Position numbers and translations under genes: made by a program. Source: an uncultured archaeon (GTDB taxonomy: Archaea; Thermoproteota; Nitrososphaeria; Nitrososphaerales; Gagatemarchaeaceae). From it: a stretch of DNA of 64,000 nt. The notes beneath the pieces are model-generated. The model had not been told where the DNA came from. It saw only the letters and a program-made list of their open reading frames with translations, and did no database searches. Location: contig CAWCYD010000003.1 of NCBI GenBank assembly GCA_963799775.1, positions 1,728,001-1,792,000 on the forward strand, written 5' to 3'. This document shows positions 1-53,884 of the stretch, piece by piece. The stretch's first letter is position 1; each line of letters opens with the position of its first letter.

Positions 1-1157
1 GTATAAACAAACTGCTCCCAACCGTAGCATGCGTTCATACCGGTTCCGCATATCCCCGAGATCAACCACCTATTGGAATTCAGTTGGATTGAATATGCGC
101 AGTCTCCATATGTGTCGTCCTCTTCGCCAGTGCCTCCTGTGCAATCGTTGTTGATTCCACTTACTGTATCACCGCCTCCTGTTAGGAAGCTGTCCTCGGC
201 GTGTGATATCAACGTTCCACTGCTTTCCTCTCCGGAGTAATCGCATGTTCCGGTGCTTGTCTCAGTGGCACAGCCACCGACCGGAGGACCAGGATTGTGA
301 GGCCCGCCAAAGGGCTTGACACAAGCTTCTGCCTGCCACTTCACACTAGGATATGAAGCCTCGAAGCAACCCACCCCTCCCGCTCCAGTGGCGGCCACTT
401 GATGCATCCAGATGTAGTTCGAACACTGCGACGCAATGTAGTTGGTATGCGTTGCTACCGAGCCGTCCTGGGTCATGACATCGCCAGTGATGTTCGCGCC
501 GGTTCCCATCGTGATGCTGCCGACCGAGAGGATACTTCCCGCAAAATTGGTCTGCCTGCTCAGGGTAGCGGCGCCTCCGACCTGCCAGAAGACGTTGCAG
601 CCGCTGCCACCGGTCATAATCACGGAGGAGCCACCCGAGGTGGTAAGCGAGCCCGCTACTTGGAAGATGAATAGGGCATTGACGTTGCCTTCAGGGTTGA
701 GAGTGAGCGTCCCGCTCAGCGACGCCGCCGAAGAGTAGCAATAGACGCCCGGTGTGAGCGTGAGCCCTCCCAGGTTCTGGCCTGTCAGGTTTCCGGTGCA
801 TGAATCGCTCGCAAGAGCGCTGTAGGCACTGGTGAGGTTGTCTTTGGCTTGAAGCGCGACTGAATCATCCTTGTATATGGTCCCCGTGACGACCCCAGGT
901 GGAAATCCGACGACAACGGCGCTGGGATCGACTCCAAGGTTCCCGCTGATGTTGGAAGGGCCTGTATTGCTTACTGCCCCTGCAGAGAGAACCCCGAAGC
1001 CCGCTGCCATTCCTAGGCTAGGCGGCGACGATGGGCTCGTTGCTGCGGCGGGCGAAACATAACGCGTGAAAGAAGACAAAACAAGAATGACAACGATAAT
1101 GAGAGGTGAAATGTTCGTGCGCCGCCGACTCTCACCTTCCGAGGGTAACAGCTTCAA
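1..1157 (-). CDS. Secreted ice-binding-like (DUF3494) protein with an additional C-terminal domain; 3' end runs off the window
   Basis: Not in the ORF track. Manual translation from TTG 1157: signal peptide (IIVVILVLSS), then LGMAAGFGVLSAGAVSNTGPSNISGNLG...LTLTPGVYCYSSAASLSGTLTL...FIFQV...NVFWQVG, typical of DUF3494. Later YSIQLNSN...CYGWEQFVY. Confidence 0.8.
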   Translation of the reverse strand, partial: MKLLPSEGESRRRTNISPLIIVVILVLSSFTRYVSPAAATSPSSPPSLGMAAGFGVLSAGAVSNTGPSNISGNLGVDPSAVVVGFPPGVVTGTIYKDDSVALQAKDNLTSAYSALASDSCTGNLTGQNLGGLTLTPGVYCYSSAASLSGTLTLNPEGNVNALFIFQVAGSLTTSGGSSVIMTGGSGCNVFWQVGGAATLSRQTNFAGSILSVGSITMGTGANITGDVMTQDGSVATHTNYIASQCSNYIWMHQVAATGAGGVGCFEASYPSVKWQAEACVKPFGGPHNPGPPVGGCATETSTGTCDYSGEESSGTLISHAEDSFLTGGGDTVSGINNDCTGGTGEEDDTYGDCAYSIQLNSNRWLISGICGTGMNACYGWEQFVY

Positions 1158-1334: not shown

Positions 1335-2579
1335 TCAGGATTGCGGTCTAATCTGCGCCACCAACGATTTGATTTCGCTTCCATAGAGCACTGACAGCAC
1401 CGCGTATCCTACCTCCGCCTTGCGGTTGTACCCGAAGTCGACCCTCAGTTTCCTCGTCATCTGCTTCAGATGCCTTTGGATCTGGGAGTTGAGCCAAGAA
1501 TACCCATAATGCACCAGCAGTCGTGACTGGGCAATCGCCTTCCCGTCCCTGGTGAACAGGTCTTTCCCGCCTTTCGCAGGTTCCATTATCACGAAGTCGT
1601 CATGCCCAAATTTTCTTTGGAGAATCGTATACGCTATCTCTGAGCCAAGCCTTCCATGCTCGTAGTTGTTGCCATGCCTCAACATCGACTGCTCGAGAGG
1701 CCTGAGCGGCCCGATCCCCTCCACCAAGGGCAACCTATGCACACCATCGAGAAGGTATTTCTTTGGGCCTTCAGTGATCTCCCCTGAAGCATAGAGCGAG
1801 GACGGCTCCCTCTGGTAGATGACAGTGGTCGATGTGCCCTTGGTGTAGTTGTACACCAAGCGCAGCCTGAATCCATCGAACGAAAGATAGGCGACCCGGA
1901 AGAAGCACCGGGTTGCTACCTGCACCCCAAGCCACGCCCTCTTGTCTCCATCGTGGTAGAGCCGCATCAACCTGTCCATCGAGAACGCGTCCTTGACCCG
2001 GAATCCCGCGTAGATCGCGTCCGGCTGATATTCTAGGAGACCAAGCAGTTGTCCGTCCATAACGAACGGTGAGCCTTTGACCTCCGGCTCTTCCGCGATT
2101 GTCAAGGATACCTTATCCCCACTCCATTTCATCTCTATCTTCGCAAGGTTCGAGACCCAAGGTTTGGACATGTCGTTCGCGTATGTGATCGACGGGAAAC
2201 CGTCAAGAAAATCGGACAGAGTGTGTCTTCTCAAATCAATCGTGAAGACATCCCCCGGCTTGCCGATCCTCTTCGGCGCGGTCGGCACCCAGTTCTTGCC
2301 CCCGACGTAGCGGTGGAAGGCTATCGAGTCGGCCTCCTTGTAACTCACTTTCAGGAGCATGGGCTGGCCGACCTTGAACCCTGGCACCCTCGCCTCCAGG
2401 TGCGAAGCAGGGATGAACAACCGGCATGGCTTCTTCGTGCTGAGCAACAGCTGGTTCTCTGGGCTCAACTTCACCATGAGCTCGTTCCCTTCTCTATCGA
2501 GGCGCCGTTGGGAAATTATCTTGGAGAGAGATGTCGTCCCCCTCCTGAATTGGTCGACGGGTTGATGCATCTCTTTCAC
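1335..2579 (-). CDS. Uncharacterised protein with a C-terminal PD-(D/E)XK-like nuclease domain
   Basis: 414 aa. C-terminal HGRLGSEIAY...GGKDLF...IAQSR. Collinear similarity to the 10869..12053 protein (GKPGDVFTI..TLSDFL vs GRAGDVIRL..TIEAFL). Confidence 0.55.
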   Translation of the reverse strand: MKEMHQPVDQFRRGTTSLSKIISQRRLDREGNELMVKLSPENQLLLSTKKPCRLFIPASHLEARVPGFKVGQPMLLKVSYKEADSIAFHRYVGGKNWVPTAPKRIGKPGDVFTIDLRRHTLSDFLDGFPSITYANDMSKPWVSNLAKIEMKWSGDKVSLTIAEEPEVKGSPFVMDGQLLGLLEYQPDAIYAGFRVKDAFSMDRLMRLYHDGDKRAWLGVQVATRCFFRVAYLSFDGFRLRLVYNYTKGTSTTVIYQREPSSLYASGEITEGPKKYLLDGVHRLPLVEGIGPLRPLEQSMLRHGNNYEHGRLGSEIAYTILQRKFGHDDFVIMEPAKGGKDLFTRDGKAIAQSRLLVHYGYSWLNSQIQRHLKQMTRKLRVDFGYNRKAEVGYAVLSVLYGSEIKSLVAQIRPQS

Positions 2580-3029
2580 CCGTTGATCGGCTTCTCGCGC
2601 GTTCTCAGCTTGATTCGCAACTCCTCAGGGGACCGAGCGAAGAAGTCCGCCCTGCTGAGGGACCTTCCTCAGCGCAGTCGTCACTGAGTCCTGGTCCTCG
2701 TTGGGCGCCTCGACCAGAGAGCCGCATCTTATCCTCGGAAGCGTCCTCTTGAGGAGGCCGAACCTGTAGTCCATGAAGGCACCTCTCCTCCTCACCTCGG
2801 ACATGGCCTGGCCCTTCTTCTTCTCGCACCTCGTGCATTCCAAGACTATCCCGGCCCCGACGAAGACCAGGAAATCTACGGAGATCCTGTCCCCGTCAGG
2901 AAAACCGAAGACGTAGTGCTCCCGGGACGGAAGTCTCTCCTCCACCAGGACGTCCCTTACCTGCGCCTCCTGAGCCGTCAGGGGCGTCATTGCATGAGTC
3001 CTTCTAAGCCACTCGATTGACGTTTGCCG
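2576..3029 (-). CDS. Small PD-(D/E)XK/Vsr-like protein with one frameshift; homologue of 37404..37844
   Basis: TSIEWLRRTHAMTPLTAQEAQVRD...VDF...VLEC...AFMDYRF..LK aligns with 37404 ORF. The shifted C-terminus (LSRADFFARSPEEL...) ends in a GTGA overlap with the next gene. Confidence 0.65.
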
Positions 3030-3073: not shown

Positions 3074-3213
3074 AACAAGGGTTTATTCTAGCTCGGATTG
3101 TCCAAAGGAGTCGAATTCTAGACATGCGGGGAACCGGTGATTAGAGCGTGGCGCTTATTTGGCCACCTCACGTATTGGGAGTGAGGTAGCCGGGCTCGAC
3201 AAAAGGGCTCATC

Positions 3214-5742
3214 ATGACGGCGCAGGGGTCGAAAGAAGACCTCTTGGCCAGGCTCGTTCACCCTGTCTTACCCGGACTGCAGCTCAATCGCATACTCTGC
3301 ATCTCGGATGACGAAGGTCTCAACTCTGAAATCAAGCAACAACTGAATGATTTCGGGTACAATCCCCGATTTGTTTCCTATTCTGGCCTGGGGACATTCG
3401 ATTCGAGGCTGGTACGCGGCAAGTCTATCGTGGCGATCTCCCCTACCGTGGCCATCAACGAGTCGCGCGCGAAGGGGATTGTGGATGGGGGCCTGGTAAG
3501 GCTGATGAGCGGCATGAACCTGCAGAGACATCCTAGTGTTTCGCGAGGTGGAGACGCCCTTTGTCATCAGTAGGGTCCAGTCCATCGAGCAACTTGTTCA
3601 TTGGATTTCTAAAGGAATTGATTCCCAGCCCGGGTTCTGGCTTGAAGAACTAGTATTGACACTCGTATACAAGAGGGGTTGCACTATGGTCGGAATACGG
3701 CGGCTCGTTGAAAATTCAGTCTGGGGACAACTCTTCCAAGACGATGGCAACTCAGTCGAGCAGGCCCGTGCAGAGCTCTTGCGGGAAGACCTGGTCACCG
3801 AAAAGAGCGGATACCTAGTTTGCAATGAGTTTGGACATGAGGTCGTTGAAGAAAACACTCCATTCGACACAGTCGATCGACCTGAGTCACGTGAACACCA
3901 TGAACCGGATGAATCGGATGGTCGAGAGGAATGGGGACCCGATGACGACTCCCGAGAGCGCAATTCCTACCTCACCGAAGTTGTGTTCGAAATCATAGAG
4001 AGATTTGGGTGGGTCACGCCAAACGACTTGGCCGCCGCTGCAGAGCGAGCCAGGGTGATGCCAGAGCGGTCGCTGGGAAAATCACGAAGGTTCCTGGAGA
4101 AGCTCGTCGCCAAAGGTGCTCTCGTCAAATCAAATTACAGCACCGGGAGGGGACGACCAAAGTCAGTCTATCGCGGGCGAGACTCGAGGACTGCAGATAT
4201 CTTGGAGAACACCTGCGGTGAGTGTGTCTTCTACTCCCGTGTTACGCGCCGATGCAGGCTGTGGTGGGCGCTATCGAGATTCAATGCGCCGGATGTCTAT
4301 GCAAGAGAGGAAGGATTGTCAACTGTCGCAAAAGACAAACTCCATCACTCCAACAAGAGGGTAGGTTCATTCAGCCACCTCCTGTGAAGAGTTCACGCCA
4401 AAGAAGAAAGACTATCCTCTGTTGAAGGCGCGTGACAAATGTGTTTCCTGCGGCCAAGAGATCGATTCACCCATCGCAAAGACCGTAAAATGCCCTACAT
4501 GCTTGACCGTGTACAAGCCTCTCGCCACGAAAATCCTCGTCCACTACGACTACGAACAGCTCTTCAAGAAACGTTACACAAAGTTAGCAGGCGTGCCGCC
4601 TCCCAGACAAGCACTAGTCCTGACCGAGCAAGAGGTTCATGGTAAGACGGACATCCGTGACACCATCGTTCTCTATCCCAATGAGAATGTTCGTCTTTCT
4701 GAGGAAGGCATGAAGGTGGAGCGAAGAGAGCACGAGTGGACCTTGGAGCCATACTCGAGGATCTACCAGGTAATCGACTATGGCTCGCTAGACGAGAAGG
4801 CTTGCTCGCAGCTTAGAGCCAAGGGGCTTCAGGTCGTGCAGACACATTTGCGGGAACTTCCGCAGCAACGCTTTCCCTTGTATCCATCCCGCGATTTCGT
4901 GGACAAACTACGCCTGCTAGAGCAAAAGTCACCCCTCAGAACAAGGCTCCTCGAGTCGATGATGCTCAGCACGGTCATCGCCACAAGGAGGATAGCGAGT
5001 CGCGGAGGTTCTCCACTCCAGGTCCATCATCAATCGCCAACTCCTCGAGTTCTCACGAATGAGAGCGGATAATGGGATGACACTGAGCAGGGCTCTTGCT
5101 TACGAGGCACGCGTCAACGCCTTCTACTGGAGCGTCTACAAGACGATGCTAAGGGTCTCTGGGCTCCAGTTCGAGAGCAGGGTGAGAGATAGGTTCGTTA
5201 GGGAGATTGTCTCCAGTATCCGGGCCAGAGCGAGGGGATACTCGCCCGCGAACGCAGCGATAAACTATCTGCATCAGAGGAGGCTGCTCTTGTGTCGACT
5301 AGCGAACGCTCGGACAGCTATAGGGTGGGTCGGCTGTGAAGGGGTTCTACATGTTGCGAAGAGAGAACCCAGCATAGGCCTGATGTTGGACCTTAGTGAT
5401 TCATTCCGGCTCGCCGACAGGGAGAGTTTCCTTAACTCCACTATGCGTATGGAGTTGTCAAGGGACGACTTCGTTGCTCGTCCGGGAAAGCACAGGGTCT
5501 GGTTCTTTCATCCGACGCAGGATGCGATTGGGAAGCTTGACTTGTGTGGGTCGAATGCGGATCAGTTTCGCGTTCAGCATGCAGGCAAAGAGATGGCTCT
5601 GACAGGAGCTTATGATCAGTTCGTGGCTTCTTTCGTAGACGCCGTGGACGCGATGGATTTAGAGCGCCTTCACACGTTCGTCTATGGAAATGCTGAGGAT
5701 TTGAAGTGGCTCGAGACGAAAGGCTTGGTTACCGTCTTGTGA
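3214..5742 (+). CDS. Multidomain Cas1-fusion protein, copy 1 (three frameshifts)
   Basis: Four consecutive ORFs align in order with the 916 aa protein at 33963..36713. Cas1 motifs: AYEARVNAFYW, NAAINYLHQ, EGVLH, LDLSDSFR. Confidence 0.8.
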
Positions 5743-6293: not shown

Positions 6294-6767
6294 CTATTCG
6301 TTGGAGTAGCAGAAGTACGGGTATCCGCCGTTGACCTTCTGGACGGCCCACTCCACCACCTTGTCGGAGACCTCTCTCCACTTCCTGTCCCAGTCGATGT
6401 CGGCGACGACCAGCTCCTTCTCCTCCTTCCCCTGGACCTCCAGCTTCTCCCAGATTGGCGTGCCGTAGAACGGCTTCACTATCCTCGCGTTCCACTTGTT
6501 GCAAGTCGGTCTGGTGCCGTGCTGGTTGTAGAACTTGCAGGAGAGGCACCATTTCGAGAGCCAGATTATGTTCTTGGAGAACTTGACGGACTTGCCTATC
6601 TCCTCGAGGAGCCGCTCCGACTCCTTCCGGATCATCTGGGCGAGCTCGTCCTGCCCCTGCTTGGTGTTCATGTAGTACTCGGGGTCTTTGGCGAGAGCCT
6701 GCTGCCAAGTGAGCGGCTGCTCCTGTTGCTGCCTCTGCTGCTGCTCCTCGGGGTCGTCTTCGAGCAA
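6294..6767 (-). CDS. Hypothetical Cys-containing protein with an N-terminal poly-Q tract
   Basis: 157 aa with host-like GC-rich codon usage; CLSCKFY...C motif. Confidence 0.7.
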   Translation of the reverse strand: MLEDDPEEQQQRQQQEQPLTWQQALAKDPEYYMNTKQGQDELAQMIRKESERLLEEIGKSVKFSKNIIWLSKWCLSCKFYNQHGTRPTCNKWNARIVKPFYGTPIWEKLEVQGKEEKELVVADIDWDRKWREVSDKVVEWAVQKVNGGYPYFCYSNE

Positions 6768-8264: not shown

Positions 8265-9043
8265 TTGCTCTCTGCAGAACTCGACCTTTCGCACGCGAAA
8301 CGCGCCATCGTCTCCTTCATCAAACGAAAGGTCCAGGAGAGCGAAGCAGACGGCGCGGTGCTTGGTTTGAGCGGCGGGATTGACTCGGCGGTCACCGCGT
8401 ACCTCACCGTGGAGGCGTTGGGGAGCAGGCGGGTCAATGGCCTGATAATGCCGGACCTCAGGGCCACACCGGATCAAGACGTAAAGGACGCGAAGCTCGT
8501 GGCGAGCGAGCTGTGCGTCGAGACGAAGGAGATTGACATCGCTCCGATACACAAGGCGTACCTGAAGACGGTGGAGCCGAACAGGCTCGCAGAGGGCAAC
8601 CTGAGGGCGCGGATCAGGATGTCGCTCCTCTACTACCATGCGAACCTCTCGAACAGGTTGGTTACAGGCACGGGAGACCGCTCAGAGCTCCTGCTGGGTT
8701 ACTTCACGAAATTTGGCGACGGAGGTGTGGACATCCTCCCCCATCGCGGACCTCTACAAGACAGAGGTCAGGAGGCTGGGCGAGGTCATTGGGATTAACA
8801 GGCGGATAGTCGCAAAGCGCAGCAGCCCGAGGCTGTGGCCCGGGCACATCGCGGAGAACGAGATTGGGATGAGCTACGAGACAATCGACAGGCTCTTCAA
8901 GCTCAGGTTCGAGGAGGGGCTAGAGGTCCCCGGACATCGCAAAGAGCTTGAAGCTGAATCGCGCGAAGGTCGAGATGATTCTCGCAAAGTATGAGGCCTC
9001 AGAGCACAAGAGGCGCATGCCAGAAATCTGCAAGTTGCGCTGA
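8265..9043 (+). CDS. nadE: NH3-dependent NAD+ synthetase (frameshifted)
   Basis: LGLSGGIDSAV, GNLRARIRM, GYFTKFGDGG, DLYKTEV, and C-terminal EHKRRMP. Confidence 0.92.
8994..9043 (+). repeat. 50 bp direct repeat (nadE 3' end), copy 1
   Basis: 44/50 identical to 10219..10268; all differences are synonymous. Confidence 0.9.
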
Positions 9044-9061
9044 CATAGTCCTGAATTTCGT

Positions 9062-9892
9062 CTACATAGTTTTCAGAAACCTTCTGATTCTTTTTACTGT
9101 GTCCCGCAAATTCTTGTCCGTGAGCGCCCTACCCGCTTCGATATCCGCGATGATGATTTTGTCCTCTTGGACAAACCTTCTTGCAGTTCGAACCAACTCG
9201 GGATGCCTGCTCCTCAGGTCGTGATATCTCTCTCCTCCTAGTTCCGGGAGGACGTAGAAGCCAAGCCCCATTATCGAGGGATTCGACCTCAATACCTTGA
9301 TGGGATTCTTCGCGGCCGCGTCGTTCAACGCCTTGAGACTCTTTGGGTCGAGCAAGCCAAGGTATCGACCCACAGAATGCTCTCCGTGATCCGCGTGGGT
9401 TATCTCAATCTTGCCGTGCTTTCTTGTCCTCACCGATGACCCTCCTGGGAAAGGGCGAACGTAGTGGAAAGCAACACCCAATTCTTGCGATATTCGGTTC
9501 TCATCCTCCTCGAGGAAATTGTTTCCGCCGTGGCCGCTCACTACGATGACCATCGATGCCTTGTTCCCCAGGTATCTCTGCTGCGCGAGGATCCCTCCAT
9601 TGATGTCTCCAATCAAGAGATTCACAAGCTCGTATCTTGGTATGCACCCCGGGTTCCAGTCCAAAGCGACCTCTCCAGCACGGTCGCCGGAGTAGGGGAG
9701 ATGGCCAATGTAAGTCAGCCCGAGTCTAATCGCTGCAGTTGTGGCTGTCATTATCGCTGCGTAGTCATCGATGTTGGAAGGGAGCGCCGGGCCGTGGTCC
9801 TCGTTTCCCGCACCGATCGAGAAGATGAGGGCGTGCCTGTTCTTCTCAGGGAATGACTCGCTCGCTCGCTTTCGTGCTGGTACGTCGGGCAT
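9062..9892 (-). CDS. Creatininase-family amidohydrolase (ArfB-like)
   Basis: NEDHGPALP..DD, SGHGGN, HADHGEHS metal-binding motifs. Confidence 0.75.
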   Translation of the reverse strand: MPDVPARKRASESFPEKNRHALIFSIGAGNEDHGPALPSNIDDYAAIMTATTAAIRLGLTYIGHLPYSGDRAGEVALDWNPGCIPRYELVNLLIGDINGGILAQQRYLGNKASMVIVVSGHGGNNFLEEDENRISQELGVAFHYVRPFPGGSSVRTRKHGKIEITHADHGEHSVGRYLGLLDPKSLKALNDAAAKNPIKVLRSNPSIMGLGFYVLPELGGERYHDLRSRHPELVRTARRFVQEDKIIIADIEAGRALTDKNLRDTVKRIRRFLKTM

Positions 9893-9993
9893 TAGAAATA
9901 TCCAGAACCGAGGTTTGACTATAAGACTTGGGCTATCGTCTGGTGGTCAGAGTTATCATCGAGGCCCCTTCTCTTGTCAAAGGTGCGTCAAGG

Positions 9994-10220
9994 ATGCCTG
10001 ATGCCCGAAGCTTTGGGAAATGGTCTCTGATTGCTGTCGCCCTATTGGGTGTTGGAACGGTTCTGATGCTCTTTGGATTCTTCACTCTCCTAGGGAAGAG
10101 GTTTTGTGGATTAGCGTCATTGTTGTTGTGGCGGGCATCTTCGTGGAGGTTCATCGGATTCACTTTGGCATACTTCGCGTACAGAGCTTCGGTCTCAAAA
10201 GAACGAACTCAGCAGACTAG
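9994..10220 (+). CDS. Small two-TM membrane protein (probable frameshift)
   Basis: MPDARSFGKWSLIAVALLGVGTVLMLFGFF... hydrophobic helices; ends at TAG 10220 next to the nadE repeat. Confidence 0.45.
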
Positions 10221-10268
10221 GCCTCGGAGCACAAGCGACGCATGCCCGAGATCTGCAAGCTGCGCTGA
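10219..10268 (+). repeat. 50 bp direct repeat (orphan nadE 3' end), copy 2
   Basis: Encodes ASEHKRRMPEICKLR*, identical in protein to the nadE C-terminus. Confidence 0.9.
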
Positions 10269-10275
10269 AGCGTCG

Positions 10276-10515
10276 TTAGATCCTGTCTCTCCTTTTTTCC
10301 ATCCGCCTTGCTTCTTCAATCAGTTGGCGCGAGTCTGTGCGGGCGAATAATTTCTTGAGTGATCCTTTCTCTGTCATCGGGTCTGTAATTGGCTTGAGAA
10401 GAATGCCTCCCTCGGCGTCTACGAGCAGGACCCTTCTACCAATCTTGTGCTTCTTCAGGAGCCTGGTTGGAATGGTCGCTTGCCCCTTCTTTGTCACTGC
10501 CGCTATGGTTCGCAT
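10276..10515 (-). CDS. AbrB/SpoVT-family DNA-binding protein (VapB-like antitoxin)
   Basis: MRTIAAVTKKGQATIPTRLLKKHKIG...GGILLKP. Confidence 0.85.
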   Translation of the reverse strand: MRTIAAVTKKGQATIPTRLLKKHKIGRRVLLVDAEGGILLKPITDPMTEKGSLKKLFARTDSRQLIEEARRMEKRRDRI

Positions 10516-10588
10516 CTGTCCTTCGTTGTAACACAAGTTGCAAAGTAATACTTGAACATTGAGTATCACTCGGGCGTGGGTTCGAGTG

Positions 10589-10647
10589 CTATGGGTGTTT
10601 AATACGCCCAGCACCTACATATTTGGTGTAGCGGCAAACGACAATCG
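10589..10647 (+). promoter_or_regulatory. Conserved ~60 bp promoter/leader element, copy 2
   Basis: CTATGGGTGTTTAATACGCCCAGCACCTA...GGTGTAGCGGCAAACGACAATCG; matches the reverse complement of 3014..3073. Confidence 0.7.
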
Positions 10648-12053
10648 GCTGTCTCAAGCAGGCTGAGATTCACCAACCCATTGAGTCGACACTTCAAGGC
10701 GGAAGAAGTGGGAGGCCTACGTTCGCGATCCGCAAGGACCTCATTGAAGACGCAATCGGAAAAAGACTGGAGAATGGGAGGGAGTATGAGATACGCGTCC
10801 GAATAGATGGAATCGGAGACTTCAGGGTAAGGCATCTGGAAAGAGGGGCAAGGCGGATCTCCATCAGGGTGCCAAAGGAGGTGAGGTCGAGTGACCTCAG
10901 GTTCGGCGAGAAGCACAGGTTAGAGATTCGCTCGGTGGAGCAACGGAGAGAGTTCCGTGTGGAAAACGCCAAGGCCGCGGGACCCACGGTGAAGATTTCC
11001 CGCGCTTCAATCGAGAGTTGGGGGCTATCCTCGAGGGCGAAGGCGCAAAACGAGAGACGGGTTGTCGACCTGCACTTTAGTAATGTCTCTAGGCCAGAGT
11101 TGGCGACAAAGCGCTTCTTCGCGGTATTCGACCCAAGAAAGGAAGAGCTGAACCTCCGCATTAGGAAGCCCGGAGGTAGAGCAGGCGACGTCATCAGACT
11201 CGAAGAGAAGAAAGAATACACAATCGAAGCCTTCCTTCAAGACTTTACGAAGCGCAGAATCGACGCGCTGAGCAATGTCACGTTACGGACGCAGAACGAG
11301 AGACTCGAAATCAAGGTGGATGGCAGGATCTTTCCGCTCAGCAGGCCTCGGCTGGATGCTCGGGGCCTAAAAGCGATCCTCTCCGCCAGGATTGGGCGAG
11401 AAGGTGTACCGATCAGGTTCACGTTCGATGGGGAGAAGGCGAGAATGACGCTGTTCGACGACTGCCCTGTCATTTGTCTAAGAGAGGAGAATGGCCTAGC
11501 AATCAGGTACGACCGAGGAGGAGGCGCATCGCGAACATTCAGGCTTCTCGATAGATTCACCCGAGAGTTGTTGGATAATCGAGTGAGGTTGGTCGCCGTC
11601 CCAGAAACCGAGCACGGGACGTTCAGTTTGATTGCGGATACTTGGCTAGGCGCGCACGTCAGAGACAGATTCGCGCGATGCAGTGGCTATGTTTTCTTGA
11701 GCCAGAAGGGAGACGTCTCGGAAGAGATCTGCCGTTATGCTCTGACCCTTACGTCGTTCTGGAGGGAGATTGCCGATCATCCTTACAATACCTCTACGGC
11801 AGGAGGTAGCAGACGGACCGGCCCTGACAGCCTTCAGCGGCTCTCGAGTTCTGGAGAGCTCTTCTACTTCGAGTTCAAGTGGTGGAGCGGACAACAGGCG
11901 AGCTCAGACGGAGAAGCTCGAAGACAGGCGGAACATTATCTCAAACGATTTCCGACCTATCAGGGAGAAAAGATAGAAGGCGTCTTTATCGGGCTCCTTG
12001 ATTGGAATGTCAAGAGCGACAAGCTCGAATTTCACGTCGAACGAGCGATTTGA
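10632..12053 (+). CDS. Protein with a C-terminal PD-(D/E)XK nuclease domain; start uncertain
   Basis: KGDVSEEI...GPDSL...FYFEFKWW. The frame is open from 10632, 79 codons upstream of the annotated GTG at 10869. Confidence 0.65.
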   Translation, partial: RQTTIGCLKQAEIHQPIESTLQGGRSGRPTFAIRKDLIEDAIGKRLENGREYEIRVRIDGIGDFRVRHLERGARRISIRVPKEVRSSDLRFGEKHRLEIRSVEQRREFRVENAKAAGPTVKISRASIESWGLSSRAKAQNERRVVDLHFSNVSRPELATKRFFAVFDPRKEELNLRIRKPGGRAGDVIRLEEKKEYTIEAFLQDFTKRRIDALSNVTLRTQNERLEIKVDGRIFPLSRPRLDARGLKAILSARIGREGVPIRFTFDGEKARMTLFDDCPVICLREENGLAIRYDRGGGASRTFRLLDRFTRELLDNRVRLVAVPETEHGTFSLIADTWLGAHVRDRFARCSGYVFLSQKGDVSEEICRYALTLTSFWREIADHPYNTSTAGGSRRTGPDSLQRLSSSGELFYFEFKWWSGQQASSDGEARRQAEHYLKRFPTYQGEKIEGVFIGLLDWNVKSDKLEFHVERAI

Positions 12054-12069
12054 CTTTGTGAATTGTGAA

Positions 12070-12161
12070 TGGACCGGAAGGGATTTGAACCCTTGACCTA
12101 AGGGAGTTTTTAGCTCTCTCCTGCGTGCGAGGCAGGCATTCTACCACTGAACTACCGGCCC
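12070..12161 (-). tRNA. tRNA-Ala(CGC) with a 20 nt intron in the variable loop (about 12098..12117)
   Basis: GGGCCGG acceptor stem, CCTGC-CT-CGC-AC-GCAGG anticodon arm, AAGGG-TTCAAAT-CCCTT T arm. Removing AGAGCTAAAAACTCCCTTAG restores the AGGTC variable loop. Confidence 0.9.
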
Positions 12162-12315
12162 ACCAATTGGAGCCATAAAGCCCCCGTTATTAAGAGCCTA
12201 GTCCTTCAGGTGCTGTCCAGGCTTCGTTTGGTCTAGCGTGAGATGCACTCGGTACCAAACCACAACTCGACAGTGCCACAGTTTGAGTTGAATTATAGGC
12301 GACCATCAGTCTATT

Positions 12316-30741: not shown

Positions 30742-32415
30742 TCAAGTCACTTTGAAATGCAGGATCACCAGCGCTCGCCATTCGTCAGCCGCGACAACTG
30801 TGTAAACGCCGGGGGTGAAGTTCACGAAGGTCGTGCTGGTACTGCTATTCCAATAGCCGCTGTATGCGTTGGTAGCAAACACTGGTAGATATCCATAAAC
30901 AATAATGTCTGCCCAAGCACTCGACGGCTCAAACAGATAGGTGAAGTTGTTGCCGACGTAAGATCCAGTACAGCCACGGGACAATCCACCAGCGTAGGAG
31001 TAGAGCGCGAGCCATTGGGCCGTGGTTACGTTTCCGGCATCATAGTAGCCTTTGGTGACGACCCAACCCATAGGGTTGAGCTCGACACCGCACGAGTTTG
31101 TTCCGAATGGAGTGAACACGTGTCCGGCCGCATTTGGAGGGTTCCAGAATGCCCAGTTACTTTCTGTGAACACGTTGTTTGCATTATCGAGTGTGTTTTG
31201 CTCGTCCGCGGTTATTGCGATGCGCTGGCCACTCTCAATCGAGGTCGAATTTAGGCTGGCCGTGAGAACAAGGCCATCGACAGAACGGGAAGATGCCGTC
31301 GTAGACTTTGGCGCAGCCTCGACTGTAAAGTGTATGCCACAACCCTGACCCCACTGGTCCATCGCCACTAGGGTATAGGCTCCAGGAGGAAACTCGACGA
31401 AGCTGGAATTGTCTGGCGCACCGGACCAGTAGCCCGACAGAGAGTCAGTTACTGATATGGGGCACGAGCCGCTCCTACATTGCTCGGTAGTGCCGTTGAA
31501 CCCGATGATTGAAGCGTAGATACTATAGGGCGCGAAGGAGTATTGGTAGTAGTATTGAGGGCCTTGGGAAGGGCAGTCGTCATGAATGGCTGGATTCTGA
31601 AGGGATAGAGTGTCGGTAGCATTGTAAGGGACGCTGTCTCCTTGGTAAACCGCGAAACCTATTGCCTGATTGACGCAGGTGTCCCTAAGGAGGCCAACGG
31701 GAATTGGCCATAGGTCAGCCGATGTAACGTCGTTTGTAGAATTTCTTGTGTTGAAGACGTCGGCATTGATTGCAATCAAGCCCGAGCCATAGCCCGCAGG
31801 CGTACCCTGAACCTCTAGTCGAAGACCGTTGGATCCAACAGTCGAGCTCGCATACGAATCAGTTCCGATGCTGACCACGCTCGTAGGAGTCGGGAACGTG
31901 GGACATGGTTGGTACTCATCGACTATTGGACTGACGCAGAATATTGTGGTGCCCGAGAACCAAACGTCATAAGTTGCGGGCTGTCCGTTCGCGTAAGACG
32001 TGAAGTTCGTCGCGTAGTATTGGCTACTCTCGTAACTTATGAGATCGACGTTTCCTAGCTTTGGAGATCCAGTCGGACAGCCGAGACCTTCCAGCTCCTC
32101 GGGGACGCAGGCCGCAGCCCCGGATACTGTGATGTTCTCGCGCTCCACTTTGTAGTGGCTGATGCTTGGAGAGTTCTGAACGCTTGTAGAGGTACTTGGA
32201 GAAGAGGTTGAGGAAGAACTCGTCGAGGAGTTTGCCAGTGTCATCGTTGATATCGATTCGCTGGAGCTTTGGCTTGAGGATGATGAAGCTCCGCCTGAGT
32301 TCGACTGGCTGTTACCTATCTGGATTGGAGAAACCAGTGGGAAGGAGACTAAGATCAGCACGGCAGCAATTACCAAAGCCTGCGCCCCAAGGAAGGCCGC
32401 TTCTTTCCTCTTCAT
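30742..32415 (-). CDS. Secreted protein with two 'DEWG-family' domains
   Basis: TM helix, Ser-rich linker; FPPGAYTLVAMDQWG and FTPGVYTVVAADEW. Confidence 0.7.
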   Translation of the reverse strand: MKRKEAAFLGAQALVIAAVLILVSFPLVSPIQIGNSQSNSGGASSSSSQSSSESISTMTLANSSTSSSSTSSPSTSTSVQNSPSISHYKVERENITVSGAAACVPEELEGLGCPTGSPKLGNVDLISYESSQYYATNFTSYANGQPATYDVWFSGTTIFCVSPIVDEYQPCPTFPTPTSVVSIGTDSYASSTVGSNGLRLEVQGTPAGYGSGLIAINADVFNTRNSTNDVTSADLWPIPVGLLRDTCVNQAIGFAVYQGDSVPYNATDTLSLQNPAIHDDCPSQGPQYYYQYSFAPYSIYASIIGFNGTTEQCRSGSCPISVTDSLSGYWSGAPDNSSFVEFPPGAYTLVAMDQWGQGCGIHFTVEAAPKSTTASSRSVDGLVLTASLNSTSIESGQRIAITADEQNTLDNANNVFTESNWAFWNPPNAAGHVFTPFGTNSCGVELNPMGWVVTKGYYDAGNVTTAQWLALYSYAGGLSRGCTGSYVGNNFTYLFEPSSAWADIIVYGYLPVFATNAYSGYWNSSTSTTFVNFTPGVYTVVAADEWRALVILHFKVT

Positions 32416-32416
32416 C

Positions 32417-33962: not shown

Positions 33963-36713
33963 TCAATGAAGAGCGACTGCGTATTCAAATGGTTTGAATG
34001 AATGGGACGTTCTGGCCTTCAGATTCTTAACCAGTGTTTGGACGGTGTCTTTGTAGGCTTCCATAAGCGTGATCTCTCGTTCTCCGCGGGACACAACAAC
34101 TCCGTCAGCTGCTTCGCCCACCGTTTCCAGCACTCCAACAACCTCCGGTCTCGGATAATAGAAGCGTGCCCCATGCCTGTCGGTGGAGCTGTAAAAGTCC
34201 CTCCAGTTCACGCTGAAATCCAGAACGGCCTCGAGCAGCTTCTCCCTGTCCGCGAACTTGAAGGGGTCGATCAAATCCAGATTCAACCCGAGGCCCTCAG
34301 GATTCCACCTCTTCCTGTGGAGGAACCCCTCCCCCGGGTCTGGGTCAAGGCCCAACTGCACGTTGACTGACCTAGCCTTGAAGAGCCTCCGTTGGTGCAG
34401 GTAGTTTATCGCCGCGTCCATCGCCGTGTACCCCCGCGCCCTTCCCGTGGGGGTCGTGACGTACTCCCTCACGAAGCGCGCTTTCTTGCGCGGCCCTGAC
34501 CTTTGCAGCACCGAATTGAGCGCGAGATGATAGGTGCCCCAGTACTCCTTCATCACCAATGCCTCATGGGCCAAGAACCTGCTCGGCGGCACCCGTTCGA
34601 GGCGTCGCATCACTGCCTTTTGCCTTGCGATAGACGCTTGGACGTGGCTCCCCTCAAGGCGAGCTAGAGACGCGACGCGCCCGGTGGCGTTTATCGCGCT
34701 CTGGGCCATCGCCAAGGCCATCCCGCGAATGAACTCGGGTTGAGAGCGAACGATATCCTCCACGAACGGGGCGATGTCGAACCTATCGACCGGTTTGGCT
34801 TCGATCATGGGACCGGCCGGCTTGGGAAGCGCTCTTACTGTCATGCCGGCGCTTGCAAGGATGTCAGTCTGCTCCTCGCCCACGATGCCGCCCAGGTCGA
34901 TCAGTGTGCTGCCCGCGAGCGGGATGGACTCGACCTTCCGCTTCTTGAAGATGTAGAGCTTCCCGTCCCTCGACAGCATCCTGTCGCCCGGGAATATCAT
35001 GACCGTCTTGGGCGCCTCTGCGGGATTCTCGTCCGTCTCTGGGGTGCGATGCTCGTCGTAGATGGCCCGCTCCACTATGCTAGGCGCAGAGCCCTGCCTC
35101 TCCTCGATGAGGCGCTTGAGGTCCGAGGAGGGATCGACGCCGGCGAGCGCCTCGTATCTCCTCTTGAACTCGTGCTCGTAGCTGGTAAGCACCTTCACCT
35201 TCTTCTGTCTGAGCGTGAAGTAGCGCGTCCTGCAGTTGCCGCACACCACCATCCCTCCCTTGGGCGGCGTCTCCGGCATCTCCTCGTAGCAGATGTCGCA
35301 TGACTCGGGAAGGGTCTTTCGGGTGTAGTCCCTTTTCTTGTCGACAAATTCGAGGCAGGCCGTCGAGTGCGGGCCTATCCGCCACGAGTTCCTCATCTTG
35401 TGGAGGTCGAAAGAGGAGAGTGGATGCGGTCCGTCCCTGGTCCATCTGTCGTGCCTGTGGCTGTAAGACTTGTTGAGGAGCCACCAGATCCTGCACTGGC
35501 GCCTAGCAGAGACGTAAAAGGCGCACTGCCCGCACTTGCTGGCCTGGTCGAACGGGAGCTTGCCGGGCATGTGGTAGACCGTTGCGGGGCGGCCTATCTC
35601 CTTGACCCAGGTCGTCTTTTGCAGCTTTCCATCGCGTGCTAGCCCCTCCGCTATTCCGCGCAGGGCGGGTCGGCTCGGGAGGAAGACGTGTAGCTCGGCT
35701 GGCTTCTCATAGTCAAAGTGGTCGTTGAAGATTTTTGGGACCGAGTCGCTCGTCTGGAGTACCTTCTGAGTCTCGGCGTTGACATAATCGAAGAGATTTT
35801 GGATGGTAAACCAGCCCTGCAGGTCGAGAAGGTTCTGGACGAGCACTTCGAGGTAGTCTTGGCCCAACTCGGAGGGGCCTTTTTCCTTCGACTGCCTGAA
35901 CACAGGCTTGGGAGGTTCCTCGGGATTCTCACGTGATTGCGCCACCTCCTCCGTCTCAAGAGCCTCGACCATCTCCCTGCCGTAGTATCCCGCGGTGTAG
36001 AGCCAGCGGGACATCGTGTCCACGAGAGCAGGCCTGCGAATGTTGTCTTCGAGCTCGTGCTCCCAGTTCTCGTTCAGTTTGGAGAAGAGAGTGCTCGCGG
36101 CGGCGAGATGCAGTCCCTGCTTGGAGAGGTGTGTGCCGAAGAGGAGCGAGACGATCGCTTCGCTTGCCTGCCTGGGTCCAAACTTCGCTTTCAGGTCGAT
36201 GACCTCCCCAGGTTGCCCCTCGGCAGCTAACCATTTCCTCGCAAGAGGCTGGAAGGATTCCTCTTCGACGACGATTGTCTTGTGGATGCTAGGCTTGGCG
36301 AGCAGTCGCGTGAGGAGCCCATCGATGTAACCCCTTCTTTCAGAGTCAATCATCCGGCCGAAAGGCGCAATCAGGACGACGATCTGAAAGGCATTGAACC
36401 TCTGCCACTTCATGAACCACCGGAACCACTCCCCGTAGTCAGCCACCAGGACACTCTTCAGCTTCTTGTGGCGCTGAACTCCTGTCCAGTGCCAGTTTTC
36501 ATCCGGGCTCAGGATGTCAACTTGTAGTTCGGAGGCATTGAGGAAGTCGTAGGTCGAATCCTCGTCGATGAAGATGGCGCAGTGGTCGTTCCTGTAGCTT
36601 CGTCTGCTGTCATAGATTCTGTTAGCCACATCTGAGGCCCAGGAAGCCTGTTGGTCGGGAAAGACGAATTCGATTCTTGAGAGAGTGCCGGGCGCGGCGA
36701 GTTGCCGACTCAA
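33963..36713 (-). CDS. Multidomain Cas1-fusion protein, copy 2 (intact, 916 aa)
   Basis: Cas1 N-terminal domain (TVMIFPGDRMLSRDGKLYI...SIPLAG) and catalytic domain (AHEALVMKEYW, DAAINYLHQ, GLDP..GEGFLH, LDLIDPFK) at about 33963..35010; preceded by wHTH (GRPATVY), CGQC..C and CDIC/CGNC motifs. Confidence 0.88.
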   Translation of the reverse strand: MSRQLAAPGTLSRIEFVFPDQQASWASDVANRIYDSRRSYRNDHCAIFIDEDSTYDFLNASELQVDILSPDENWHWTGVQRHKKLKSVLVADYGEWFRWFMKWQRFNAFQIVVLIAPFGRMIDSERRGYIDGLLTRLLAKPSIHKTIVVEEESFQPLARKWLAAEGQPGEVIDLKAKFGPRQASEAIVSLLFGTHLSKQGLHLAAASTLFSKLNENWEHELEDNIRRPALVDTMSRWLYTAGYYGREMVEALETEEVAQSRENPEEPPKPVFRQSKEKGPSELGQDYLEVLVQNLLDLQGWFTIQNLFDYVNAETQKVLQTSDSVPKIFNDHFDYEKPAELHVFLPSRPALRGIAEGLARDGKLQKTTWVKEIGRPATVYHMPGKLPFDQASKCGQCAFYVSARRQCRIWWLLNKSYSHRHDRWTRDGPHPLSSFDLHKMRNSWRIGPHSTACLEFVDKKRDYTRKTLPESCDICYEEMPETPPKGGMVVCGNCRTRYFTLRQKKVKVLTSYEHEFKRRYEALAGVDPSSDLKRLIEERQGSAPSIVERAIYDEHRTPETDENPAEAPKTVMIFPGDRMLSRDGKLYIFKKRKVESIPLAGSTLIDLGGIVGEEQTDILASAGMTVRALPKPAGPMIEAKPVDRFDIAPFVEDIVRSQPEFIRGMALAMAQSAINATGRVASLARLEGSHVQASIARQKAVMRRLERVPPSRFLAHEALVMKEYWGTYHLALNSVLQRSGPRKKARFVREYVTTPTGRARGYTAMDAAINYLHQRRLFKARSVNVQLGLDPDPGEGFLHRKRWNPEGLGLNLDLIDPFKFADREKLLEAVLDFSVNWRDFYSSTDRHGARFYYPRPEVVGVLETVGEAADGVVVSRGEREITLMEAYKDTVQTLVKNLKARTSHSFKPFEYAVALH

Positions 36714-37403: not shown

Positions 37404-37844
37404 ATGAACACCTCTTCTAGATGGATGACCCGAGCGCACGCCCTCATCCCCCTGACGGAGCAGGAGAGACAGGTCCGCGACCTCCTCCTCGAGCAGAGAC
37501 TGACGCACCTCACCCACGCGGTCTTCCCGAACGGGGGCAGGCTGATAGTGGTGGACTTCTTCCTCAGCGATCTCCGGACGGTGCTCGAGTGCTGGAAGAC
37601 CACGGCCAGGAGCGGGGTCGCATTGGGCTGGATGGAGAGGAACGCCGCGTTCATCGACGTGAAGTTCAGGCGCCTGAAGGGTATGCATCCGGGAATCCGC
37701 TGTGTCGCCCTCGCAGAGGCTCCACACGTAGAGCTAGCGACCCTGTCCAAGGTGATCGGGGAGATCCTGGTCCACGCCGACCATGTGGCGTACTCGATGG
37801 ATGGGTTCGGATATGCTCTTTCGCAGTTGGGAGGCGGAAAGTGA
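37404..37844 (+). CDS. Small PD-(D/E)XK/Vsr-like protein
   Basis: LTEQERQVRDLL...VVDFFL...VLECWK; TTAAATA 21 nt upstream of ATG; homologue of 2576..3029. Confidence 0.7.
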   Translation: MNTSSRWMTRAHALIPLTEQERQVRDLLLEQRLTHLTHAVFPNGGRLIVVDFFLSDLRTVLECWKTTARSGVALGWMERNAAFIDVKFRRLKGMHPGIRCVALAEAPHVELATLSKVIGEILVHADHVAYSMDGFGYALSQLGGGK

Positions 37845-39034
37845 TGCCGCGCCCGCCTTTCGGGAGCCCGGAATGGTTGCCCTACTTCGAGGAGATCGTG
37901 AGGACGAGCAAGACGACGAAGGAGGCGGTCAACAGGTTGGGCTACGCCACCCCTACAGTGGTCTACTATCACCTGAAGAAGTTCGGCATAGAGCGGCCGC
38001 CCGTTTGGTCCAAGCGTCCGTGGCTTCGGGAATTCATGCAGCGGAACATACCACAGGTGATCATCCCCACGACCACAGGTAGGCGTTGGGTCGCTGGATT
38101 GACCCAGGGGGAAGGATGCATTCAAGCTAGGTTCTTCACGCAATACGATGTGACGTATCTCAACCTCGACGTGTCGATGACAGACCCTGAACCTGTCTTC
38201 AGATTCTCTGATTATGTTGGGTTGTCGCACCCGTCAAAACCGGTCAAGAATCACGATTGGAAGCCCAATTGGCACAAGAATGTCTCGGGCCTACGGGCCT
38301 TCAGAGTTCTGCAAGAGATTCGACCCTTCTTACTGGGGGAGAAGTTGAAGGAGGCCGAGAAGGCGCTGTCCTTCTTCGCACCCCGTGGAATCCATTCGGG
38401 CTGCTTTGGGAATCTCGACGTCTGGCCGACGAAAGAATTTCCCTGGAGGACCAAGAGACGTGGTTCCGCTGCATCGACCTTGACAGGCACGCGGATAGAA
38501 TATCCTACGACGGGGCCTGATTCGTTCACCTTGAAATCACGACTCGAATCTGTAAACCCAACCACGGTCATTCATCCTTGGAATGTTGGGCTCGTGAATC
38601 GAGGCAAAGTTCCCGAGGTCATCATCACATCGACGGATGATAGGGCATGGGTTGGCGGCCTGGTCCAAGGCGAAGTGACCTTGGAATCTCATTACGTCAA
38701 GATGTCTGACTCGACGACGCTGATTCTTGGCCTGAGGATGACTGATCCGCATCCTGTCTTTAGGTTCGCCGACTTGTGCGGACTTCCAAGACCGAACCGA
38801 CCAACGGAAAGGCCCAATCGATGGCAGCCGATATGGAGGAAGGATGTCTCCGGGATAAGAGCGCTACGAGTTCTGAAGGAAATCCAGCCTTTCTTGGTTG
38901 GGCAGAAACTTCGCGAAGCCCAGAAGGCGTTCGATTTCTTCGACCTCAACGGCTACCGCCGAGGATGCTTTTACTCATCGGCAATTTGGCCCCCCGACGA
39001 ATTTCCCTTTAGGAGACATCCAGTGGAACACTGA
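37844..39034 (+). CDS. HTH plus tandem LAGLIDADG-like endonuclease domains
   Basis: Probable start at the TGATG overlap (MPRPPFG...). Two internal repeats WVAGLTQGEGCI...MTDPEPVFRF...SGLRAFRVL and WVGGLVQGEVTL...MTDPHPVFRF...SGIRALRVL. Confidence 0.7.
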   Translation: MPRPPFGSPEWLPYFEEIVRTSKTTKEAVNRLGYATPTVVYYHLKKFGIERPPVWSKRPWLREFMQRNIPQVIIPTTTGRRWVAGLTQGEGCIQARFFTQYDVTYLNLDVSMTDPEPVFRFSDYVGLSHPSKPVKNHDWKPNWHKNVSGLRAFRVLQEIRPFLLGEKLKEAEKALSFFAPRGIHSGCFGNLDVWPTKEFPWRTKRRGSAASTLTGTRIEYPTTGPDSFTLKSRLESVNPTTVIHPWNVGLVNRGKVPEVIITSTDDRAWVGGLVQGEVTLESHYVKMSDSTTLILGLRMTDPHPVFRFADLCGLPRPNRPTERPNRWQPIWRKDVSGIRALRVLKEIQPFLVGQKLREAQKAFDFFDLNGYRRGCFYSSAIWPPDEFPFRRHPVEH

Positions 39035-42910: not shown

Positions 42911-42996
42911 ACTTTCCGGTCTTCCTGATTATCCGGCCACGAGTGGACGATTCAACAGAAGTTTATTAACATCCGAAAAGGGCCGCTTCGAAAGCC

Positions 42997-52694: not shown

Positions 52695-52725
52695 ACACTC
52701 GGGGTCTTGCTTGTATCGCTTTTTA

Positions 52726-53850: not shown

Positions 53851-53884
53851 GCCGCGTTTCGTATAATAGGAGGCCCTCCCTCGG

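Follow-up and report, generated by a model that had tools for sequence, protein, structure and literature searches.

A frame-broken paralogue of a Cas1 fusion protein in a three-gene cassette of a Gagatemarchaeaceae archaeon

The DNA analysed here (the window) is a stretch of 64,000 nucleotides from an uncultured archaeon of the family Gagatemarchaeaceae (order Nitrososphaerales; GenBank assembly GCA_963799775.1, contig CAWCYD010000003.1, positions 1,728,001 to 1,792,000 of the forward strand). It carries two genes in which a Cas1 domain is fused to a long N-terminal part: an uninterrupted gene for 916 amino acids, referred to as copy 1, and a gene broken into several reading frames at 3214-5742 on the plus strand, referred to as copy 2; a further copy beyond the window end is referred to as copy 3. 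An earlier note, made from the letters of the window alone, had described copy 2 as four frame-split open reading frames (ORFs) that repeat the domain order of copy 1. The four ORFs were recovered on the plus strand as described, with lengths of 119, 283, 216 and 227 amino acids, and their translations contain all of the motifs that had been quoted (GIVDGGLVRL, LEELVLTLV, CNEFGHEVV, GRPKSVY, CGECVFY, CRLWW, CVSC, CPTC, AYE, EGVLH and LDLSD). Copies 1 and 2 are convergent and separated by 28.2 kb, in agreement with the distance of about 28 kb given before. Coordinates of these genes and of the features discussed below are collected in Table 1.

Table 1. Features of the copy 2 and copy 1 cassettes and frame-split genes elsewhere in the window
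Feature	Position	Strand	Description
Copy 2, piece 1	3214..3573	+	Frame 1; start of RecA-like N-terminal domain; homologous reading stops near 3510-3523
Copy 2, piece 2	3536..4387	+	Frame 2; homologous reading 3524-4366; predicted RecA-like end, first winged helix, acidic linker, second winged helix (GRPKSVY), first Cys cluster (CGECVFY...CRLWW)
Copy 2, piece 3	4422..5072	+	Frame 3; homologous reading 4371-5024; fourth Cys of first cluster, CVSC...CPTC zinc ribbon, helical linker, Cas1 N-terminal beta domain
Copy 2, piece 4	5059..5742	+	Frame 1; homologous reading 5026-5742; Cas1 catalytic alpha-helical domain
Break J1	3511..3523	+	13 nucleotides against 4 residues in relatives (one surplus nucleotide); no base run of 3 or more
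Break J2	4367..4370	+	4 nucleotides against 1 residue in relatives (one surplus nucleotide); context ggttcat
Break J3	5025..5025	+	1 nucleotide against 0 residues in relatives (one surplus nucleotide); context catcatcaat
Copy 2 small gene	2625..2990	-	PD-(D/E)xK-like fold, by model of the paralogue at 37404-37844
Third gene, copy 2 cassette	1335..2579	-	414 amino acids, intact; homologues in the same position in loci L043 and L027
Copy 1 (clade A), intact	33963..36713	-	916 amino acids; reference and source of the structure model
Copy 1 small gene	37404..37844	+	PD-(D/E)xK-fold partner, 146 amino acids, divergent from copy 1
Third gene, copy 1 cassette	37841..39034	+	397 amino acids; internal duplication (two-part self-similarity)
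GcvT split	53410-54552 (profile 1-121) and 52691-53470 (profile 129-255)	-	Overlapping ORFs in different frames
AglB/STT3 split	50698-52200 and 49902-50840	-	Overlapping ORFs in different frames
HD-domain protein split	61041-61853 and 60704-61621	-	Overlapping ORFs in different frames

Alignment of the four translations to the copy 1 protein with BLASTP gave collinear matches throughout: residues 72-105 of the first ORF to residues 112-145 of copy 1 (E 0.003), 38-248 of the second to 185-415 (24% identity, E 2e-11), 5-70 of the third to 470-538 (36%, E 1e-6) and 1-212 of the fourth to 702-914 (36%, E 4e-36). The impression of low overall identity with conserved motifs thus holds, at 24-36% identity and with every quoted motif in place. 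Copy 2 aligns better with intact relatives of 820-870 amino acids; in one of these (P0045, 861 amino acids), residues 13-857 are covered by copy 2 in four collinear pieces in three frames, at 65.9% identity over 844 positions. On the evidence of these alignments, copy 2 is a full-length, divergent paralogue of the Cas1-solo fusion, of about 842 codons.

Protein architecture was examined on an AlphaFold2 model of the copy 1 protein, and not of copy 2, built from a 50-sequence alignment (predicted local distance difference test score, pLDDT, 81.1; predicted template modelling score, pTM, 0.66); the domains listed for piece 2 in Table 1 are assigned by homology to this model. According to the model and the alignment, the protein starts with a degenerate, one-lobe Hel308-like RecA domain joined to a winged helix; another winged helix, a Cys4 module and a Cys4 zinc ribbon follow, and the beta and catalytic domains of Cas1 form the C-terminal part. 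In Foldseek searches of the PDB, the best matches were a casposase (6opm_B, E 7.7e-9) and a Cas1 (4n06_B, E 8.1e-9), extending over 350-390 columns to whole chains. VIA-align gave Z scores of 18-21 for Cas1 chains over model residues 570/606-912 and of 20.4 for casposase 6opm over residues 641-916. The model accordingly displays the two-domain Cas1 fold, with a beta domain and an alpha-helical catalytic domain, and copy 2 aligns to that region.

The winged helix of the N-terminal part had been called Hel308-like, and this assignment was borne out by the fold match to Hel308 (2va8_A, Z 16.0, root-mean-square deviation 3.1, 214 residues aligned, model residues 12-257). Among Ski2-like superfamily 2 helicases more generally, Hel308, Hjm, PolQ and Brr2 superposed their RecA lobe and winged helix on model residues 11-270 with Z scores of 14-16 (214-243 residues aligned, root-mean-square deviation 3.1-4.3). 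In contrast to these helicases, the model shows a single alpha/beta lobe packed against the winged helix, and the nucleotide-binding motifs are not conserved: 38 of the 50 aligned sequences lack GK[ST] (Walker A) in the first 200 residues, and 49 of the 50 lack DExx. Because of the single lobe and the unconserved motifs, the N-terminal part is best described as a helicase remnant that cannot be an active helicase. In a protein atlas, residues 1-270 fell to STAND/AAA-like clusters (0.85), and residues 285-560 scored 0.79; both values are at most leads and were not used.

Two groups of cysteines (C394, C397, C407 and C453; C472, C475, C491 and C494, copy 1 numbering) and the residues E717, H799 and D813 are invariant in the 50 sequences, and D816 is found in at least 90% of them. 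All of the invariant cysteines and catalytic residues are present in copy 2, where the catalytic codons lie at 5104-5106 (E), 5350-5352 (H), 5389-5391 (D) and 5398-5400 (D), corresponding to E16, H98, D111 and D114 of the fourth ORF. E717, H799, D813 and D816 correspond to the catalytic set E141, H208, D218 and D221 of Escherichia coli Cas1, as listed in the consulted parts of Krupovic et al. 2014 (PMC4046053). By sequence the similarity to canonical Cas1 is marginal. The Pfam family Cas_Cas1 scored 24.9 bits (E 1.4e-5) on the fourth ORF of copy 2 and 31 bits on copy 3, with a cut-off of 22.3 bits, and stayed below that cut-off on copy 1 at 17.2 bits, so that copies 1 and 2 together span 17-25 bits; TIGR00287 reached 22 bits against a cut-off of 71.7, and the best PDB sequence match had an E value of 0.019. 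For copy 3, a match to a PADLOC Cas1 profile (E 2.4e-10) extended over almost the full length.

A search of the whole genome (2.47 Mb in three contigs) placed the family at three loci, namely copy 1, copy 2 and copy 3, the last at C3:1829100-1831377 (8878-9576 and 9545-11431 of locus L007), 37 kb past the window end. The proposal of a second paralogue therefore stands as to paralogy and falls short as to number, the genome having three copies and not two. Copy 3 is the nearest relative of copy 2 in the genome (70.6% nucleotide identity over 1736 nucleotides; amino acid identity 43-74% by segment). Database searches yielded about 40 relatives each of the copy 1 type and of the copy 3 type, with full-length proteins of 880-930 and 820-870 amino acids, respectively. 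In a quick tree built from the last 300 residues (77 rows), two clades were recovered, each with a Shimodaira-Hasegawa-like approximate likelihood ratio (SH-aLRT) support of 99: clade A, with copy 1, and clade B, with copies 2 and 3. Both clades recur together on single contigs of other genomes, with P0004, P0016 and P0048 on a contig of 228,666 bp and P0005 and P0046 on one of 98,386 bp. These results agree with the view of the earlier note that the family is old, and a count of copies in related genomes agrees with its expectation of more than one copy per genome, at least two separate places being matched in 6 of the 12 genomes with any match.

With copy 1 as query, 12 of 41 related genomes were matched, all from one family: 11 of the 24 other genomes of that family and none of the 16 single genomes from the order's other families, many of the 41 being incomplete, so that a non-match is no proof of absence. 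Public loci with family members came from metagenome-assembled genomes that bear the titles Thaumarchaeota or Nitrososphaerales, including one Candidatus Gagatemarchaeum, and from three otherwise labelled contigs that are short or may be mis-binned. Among 1.84 billion representatives, a profile search returned 179 proteins at E of 0.001 or below, and 64 at 1e-30 or below. The distant relatives among these are proteins of 1000-1400 amino acids that match only from the second winged helix to the end, and their named cluster members are all from Asgard archaea (metagenome-assembled Helarchaeota, Promethearchaeota, Hodarchaeales and Heimdallarchaeota). These proteins (P0126, P0138, P0139, P0141, P0184, P0190 and others) keep the winged helix, the two Cys clusters and the Cas1 residues but have unrelated N-terminal parts; those of the eight that were tested had no Pfam match, and no loci of Asgard relatives were found in the metagenome scans. 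Viral contigs yielded no family member, and a search of the viral structure library gave no match at E of 0.001 or below. As judged from these searches, the family appears small and confined to one family of Nitrososphaerales, apart from its distant, long relatives in Asgard archaea.

The Cas1-fusion gene is part of a recurrent gene group. Directly upstream of it and divergent from it, a gene for 121-150 amino acids accompanies all three copies in this genome and was found in 17 of 20 public loci; in the remaining three, nothing but C-terminal fragments of the Cas1 gene is present. A model of the small protein next to copy 1 (pLDDT 89.6) displays the alpha-beta-beta-beta-alpha-beta core of restriction-endonuclease-like proteins, with Z scores of 11.5 to the Can2 nuclease domain, 11.4 to PspGI, 10.5 to an XisH-like protein, 9.3 to Bax1 and 7.7 to Vsr; its Foldseek matches were marginal (best E 1.2e-3). 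Of the catalytic D...(D/E)xK motif, an Asp in VDF and the invariant E62 are present, the latter followed by Cys and in the context ECWK/R/Q in one group and ECT in the other, with no conserved Lys after it. Behind the small gene lies a third gene, the identity of which varies: the 397-amino-acid type occurs in seven loci including that of copy 1 (the others being L025, L026, L028, L029, L030 and L036), the 414-amino-acid type at copy 2, L043 and L027, and other proteins elsewhere. The two kinds of third gene have no mutual similarity by BLASTP; neither they nor the small gene had a family match in Pfam, NCBIfam or PADLOC, and PDB sequence searches with the third genes returned nothing usable (best E 0.08, for the 414-amino-acid protein). 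Two candidate assignments were set aside, namely NinG for the third gene of one relative (sub-threshold, E 0.007) and a LAGLIDADG-like nature of the 397-amino-acid protein, an idea formed by eye that no search supported.

Flanking gene order recurs on both sides of the cassettes in several genomes, in blocks that include a PCNA gene and diphthamide-synthase and Rrp4 genes, the latter two also occurring next to copy 1 in the window. The convergent arrangement of the two clades, with a spacing of 28 kb here, was seen in at least one other genome with a spacing of about 16 kb. From these recurring flanks the cassettes were taken to be long-standing residents of the chromosome. At one public locus (L027 6266-10670) a clade A Cas1 domain stands with a small gene and a third gene that resemble those of the clade B cassette of the window; parts of the cassette may have been exchanged between paralogues, to judge by this arrangement. 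Next to the damaged small gene of copy 3 abuts a gene for a TnpB/IS605 OrfB-type protein of 491 amino acids (OrfB_IS605, Cas12f1-like TNB and HTH_OrfB matches; L007 6769-8244, minus strand, which is G000:C3:1826769-1828244).

Each of the breaks J1-J3 of copy 2 was found to be a gain of one nucleotide relative to copy 3 and to the 14 relatives listed, and none falls in a run of three or more identical bases. The four segments read in their correct frames contain no in-frame stop, and a codon model trained on the same genome strongly favoured the homologous frame in all of them (for example, -4.2 against -122.9 and -68.4). Over 834 codons compared with copy 3, the proportion of nonsynonymous differences (pN) was 0.22 and that of synonymous differences (pS) 0.74, the latter saturated, which agrees with the earlier description of the family as selected; the segment following all three breaks is the most conserved (pN 0.146). 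Copy 2 was thus under purifying selection through nearly its whole history, and its breaks are either very recent or not real.

To set the breaks against the quality of the assembly, frameshift-like events were counted over 1.94 Mb of predicted coding DNA with a three-periodic Markov model, decoded by a Viterbi procedure in which the frame may switch. There were 761 such events (524 of the +1 type and 237 of the -1 type), with a strict subset of 245 (175 and 70, respectively), the +1 share being 69-71% across both sets. Six strict events were drawn at random and five were tested with Pfam, giving three clear splits (thiolase between its N- and C-terminal domains, CofD into 4-129 and 139-254, and CBM48 from alpha-amylase), two ambiguous cases and none that contradicted the call. 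Among 85 events confined to 45 nucleotides or fewer, 60 are of the +1 type and 58 are free of base runs of four or more. Being of the +1 type and away from long base runs, J1-J3 match the error profile of the assembly in kind and context. Housekeeping genes had been said to be broken as well, and in the window GcvT, AglB/STT3 and an HD-domain protein are indeed split, as are further genes elsewhere in the genome. An Rrp4-like exosome gene with an ECR1_N match (41826-42969, plus strand) seems by the frame model to run through three frames, with switches near 42473 and 42649. The genome is 81.67% complete by markers, a figure that may partly reflect frame breaks. With hundreds of frame breaks in this assembly, split genes in it should not be called pseudogenes or gene fissions without read support.

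Consensus errors are slightly favoured as the source of the breaks in copy 2, because the assembly is full of frame breaks, about 70% of them of the same +1 type, and several have been verified in housekeeping genes; the earlier suspicion of sequencing errors is to that extent upheld, with the real mutations of a recently inactivated copy following closely. Taken as a whole, the evidence is read as a complete clade B copy of the Cas1 fusion in a conserved three-gene cassette, of which genomes hold two or three old paralogues, with breaks that are slightly more likely artefacts and with a proposed role as a nuclease or integrase outside CRISPR. This reading is held with fair but limited confidence, and the following points weigh against it. 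Three breaks in 2.53 kb exceed the genome mean, with a Poisson probability of three or more of 0.08 when all 761 events are counted and 0.004 when the 245 strict events are. The small gene beside copy 2 has no start codon ahead of its conserved N-terminus (its conserved frame extends to about 3020, with no ATG, GTG or TTG ahead of the Met at 2990, which is residue 18), and a stop cuts off the last 20 or so residues of its relatives; a lost start and an early end go beyond what indel errors alone explain. One break is present in copy 3 as well, the small gene of which has a frameshift and an in-frame stop. The codon usage of copy 2 is atypical (log-odds about 0 per nucleotide, against 0.043 for copy 1), and the small protein has no conserved lysine for its PD-(D/E)xK motif. 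Finally, no public read or contig from run X1 spans J1, J2 or J3, and nothing was obtained from runs X2 and X3; the X1 contigs (28% of sampled words, depth about 3) cover 3179-3486, 4549-4762, 4811-5025 and 5464-5635.

The strongest competing account is that the breaks of copy 2 are real and that it is a recently inactivated pseudogene, the clade B cassettes being in decay in this organism while the clade A cassette is kept. We give this account somewhat less than an even chance. The excess of breaks, the truncated small partner with its lost start, the atypical codon usage, and a broken copy 3 with a damaged small gene and a TnpB gene inserted beside it all speak for decay, as does the tip branch of copy 2 in the quick tree, which measures 0.27 against 0.10-0.18 in its nearest relatives. 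The tip of the intact copy 1 is longer still, however, at 0.49, which marks long tips as a property of the sequences of this genome. Against decay there also stand 842 codons without a nonsense codon or any other change of length relative to relatives, and the fact that essential genes of the same assembly are broken in the same manner. The break of copy 3 lies at another position than those of copy 2 and, as read from overlapping codons, is again a gain of one nucleotide, so that all four breaks in the two copies are of the type that makes up about 70% of the frame breaks in the assembly. The alignment of one X1 contig ends exactly at J3 (5025) with five unaligned letters, as expected from a one-base difference near a contig end, which is a weak hint of an assembly error.

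A different question is whether the cassette is an active mobile element of casposon- or Tn7-like type, in which the Cas1 fusion would serve as integrase, the PD-(D/E)xK protein as second-strand nuclease, and the copies would have arisen by transposition. The presence of two or three copies per genome, the patchy occurrence within the family (11 of its 24 other genomes), the fragmented copies in several relatives and the casposase as top Foldseek match are all compatible with mobility, and the pairing of a nuclease with an integrase recalls TnsA and TnsB. The copies are old, however, the closest pair having 70.6% nucleotide identity and saturated synonymous sites, and the variable insertion site that is a trait of casposons was not seen, the same blocks flanking the cassettes on both sides in several genomes. 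No protein-primed PolB (PF03175) was matched in the genome, and the family B polymerase domain PF00136 was found only at C3:450-454 kb, 1.3 Mb from the copies. Terminal inverted repeats bracketing any of the three cassettes were not found, the best pairs (14-28 nucleotides, 71-94%) being chance-like, a search that degenerate or gapped repeats could escape. Together with the lack of matches on viral contigs, these results make mobility improbable.

The idea that the protein serves adaptation in a CRISPR-Cas system that went unrecognised or was not assembled draws on the Cas1 fold and catalytic residues and on the incomplete genome, and fares far worse. Cas2 (PF09827) had no match in the genome, at 81.67% completeness, and was absent among the recurrent neighbours in the 20 public loci, which share non-cas neighbours; no Cas1 other than the family copies was found in the genome. 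A crude genome-wide scan of the 2.47 Mb detected no regularly spaced 18-mers, and in the window neither a CRISPR-like repeat (TRF) nor a CRISPR RNA family (Rfam) was detected. The distance from canonical Cas1 already described, and the 179 matches among 1.84 billion representatives, likewise leave this account very little room. Since Cas2, an array, a nearby PolB, terminal repeats and viral copies were not found and the flanks are syntenic, the family is neither a standard CRISPR adaptation module nor a casposon as currently defined. Least credible of all is that J1-J3 are programmed +1 ribosomal frameshift sites from which one protein is expressed, for although the same +1 shift would be needed at all three and at the break of copy 3, the sites have no common motif, slippery codon or following stop codon, relatives are unbroken there, copy 3 is broken elsewhere, and the +1 bias holds genome-wide.

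The family was also compared with known systems. Like casposases such as that of Methanosarcina mazei (PDB 6opm), it has a stand-alone Cas1 with four catalytic residues; in the consulted parts of Krupovic et al. 2014 (PMC4046053) and of a casposon review (PMC9939771), some casposases are described with extra DNA-binding or zinc modules fused to Cas1. Unlike casposases, the family was found without an adjacent PolB or terminal inverted repeats and at a syntenic chromosomal site, has an N-terminal extension of about 560 residues with a helicase remnant, and is partnered by a PD-(D/E)xK protein and not by HNH or helix-turn-helix genes. With CRISPR Cas1 it shares the two-domain fold (Z 18-21) and the E/H/D/D residues at matching positions, whereas neither Cas2 nor an array was found and sequence similarity is marginal. 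Cas1-solo group 1 of Methanomicrobiales comprises, according to the same parts of PMC4046053, Cas1 homologues that lie outside CRISPR loci, are inherited vertically and lack the full catalytic set; the present family likewise lies outside CRISPR loci but keeps all catalytic residues. The Asgard Cas1 homologues resemble the family in the winged helix, the two Cys clusters and the Cas1 residues, and differ in their N-terminal parts, which are longer and of another kind.

In the portions available to us of the casposon, thaumarchaeal mobile-element and Cas1 literature (PMC4046053; PMC9939771; a survey of thaumarchaeal mobile elements, PMC6563490; Koonin and Makarova 2022, PMC8730458; a hot-spring Cas1 survey, PMC9755687), no description of a fusion of Hel308-like, winged-helix, zinc and Cas1 domains in Thaumarchaeota was found. 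A term search of the accessible text of the Gagatemarchaeaceae genomics paper (PMC10640624) gave no mention of Cas1, CRISPR, casposon or integrase. Diverse Asgard Cas1 homologues are reported by Makarova et al. 2020 (CRISPR J), as cited in the parts consulted of PMC8730458 and PMC9939771, and the family or its Asgard relatives may already be named there. To the earlier note the present analysis adds copy 3, the genes that accompany the fusion, evidence from the fold, the finding that the family belongs neither to CRISPR nor to casposons, and the link to Asgard archaea.

The function proposed for the family is that of a CRISPR-independent Cas1 nuclease or integrase module. Cas1 enzymes are dimers whose metal-dependent site cuts DNA or joins 3'-OH ends to it, and this site is intact in the family; winged helices, zinc modules and helicase-derived domains are of types that recognise branched DNA or a DNA sequence. 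By the same token the fusion protein would dimerise through its Cas1 part, its winged-helix, zinc and helicase-remnant domains would target it to a particular DNA sequence or branched structure, and the metal-dependent active site of Cas1 would cut or join the DNA there. The small PD-(D/E)xK protein, as a putative nuclease, could make or trim complementary ends or act on the other strand; Cas4 for Cas1-Cas2 and TnsA for TnsB are parallels in which a partner nuclease works on the other strand. The biological role might be defence or domesticated DNA processing, and not spacer acquisition or casposon transposition. Compared with a core repair gene, a defence-type module, or a domesticated one derived from an element, would agree better with the patchy distribution, the paralogy, the variable third gene and the atypical codon usage of clade B, a view held with low confidence.

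To our knowledge, Cas1 works in two settings only, CRISPR spacer acquisition and casposon transposition. The conserved active site, the purifying selection and the fixed nuclease partner, found without CRISPR, PolB or transposon ends, point to another use of the Cas1 integrase. It is conceivable, though we consider it doubtful, that the cassette represents a Cas1-based system of a third kind, next to those of CRISPR adaptation and of casposons: fixed in the chromosome, with a core common to Nitrososphaerales of soil and to Asgard archaea, using the Cas1 site for site- or structure-directed cutting and joining in defence or programmed DNA processing, and with the dead helicase lobe and winged helices as a sensor of DNA structure. 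The Asgard relatives suggest that such a use of Cas1 is old. The family offers a testable way to approach the recruitment or re-use of Cas1, and could yield a compact DNA-joining enzyme with its own targeting domains.

Several genes next to the cassettes were recorded in passing. An ice-binding-like protein (3-1157, minus strand; PF11999, E 1.4e-49) adjoins the copy 2 cassette and is not found in the syntenic locus L043. After the copy 2 gene comes a Gln/Glu-rich protein of 157 amino acids with a Cys-containing C-terminal half (6294-6767, minus strand), which has no family match, is present in the same place in L043 at 83% identity and occurs also in L027 and L038. Ser/Thr-rich, predicted secreted paralogues with 33-36% identity lie by copy 1 (30742-33868, minus strand) and by copy 3 (L007 5648-6514, plus strand), with similar proteins in L038 and L029. 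Further along the window, a tRNA-Ala(CGC) gene (12069-12162, minus strand) measures 94 nucleotides and is longer than a plain tRNA, which suggests an intron; tRNA introns are common in archaea.

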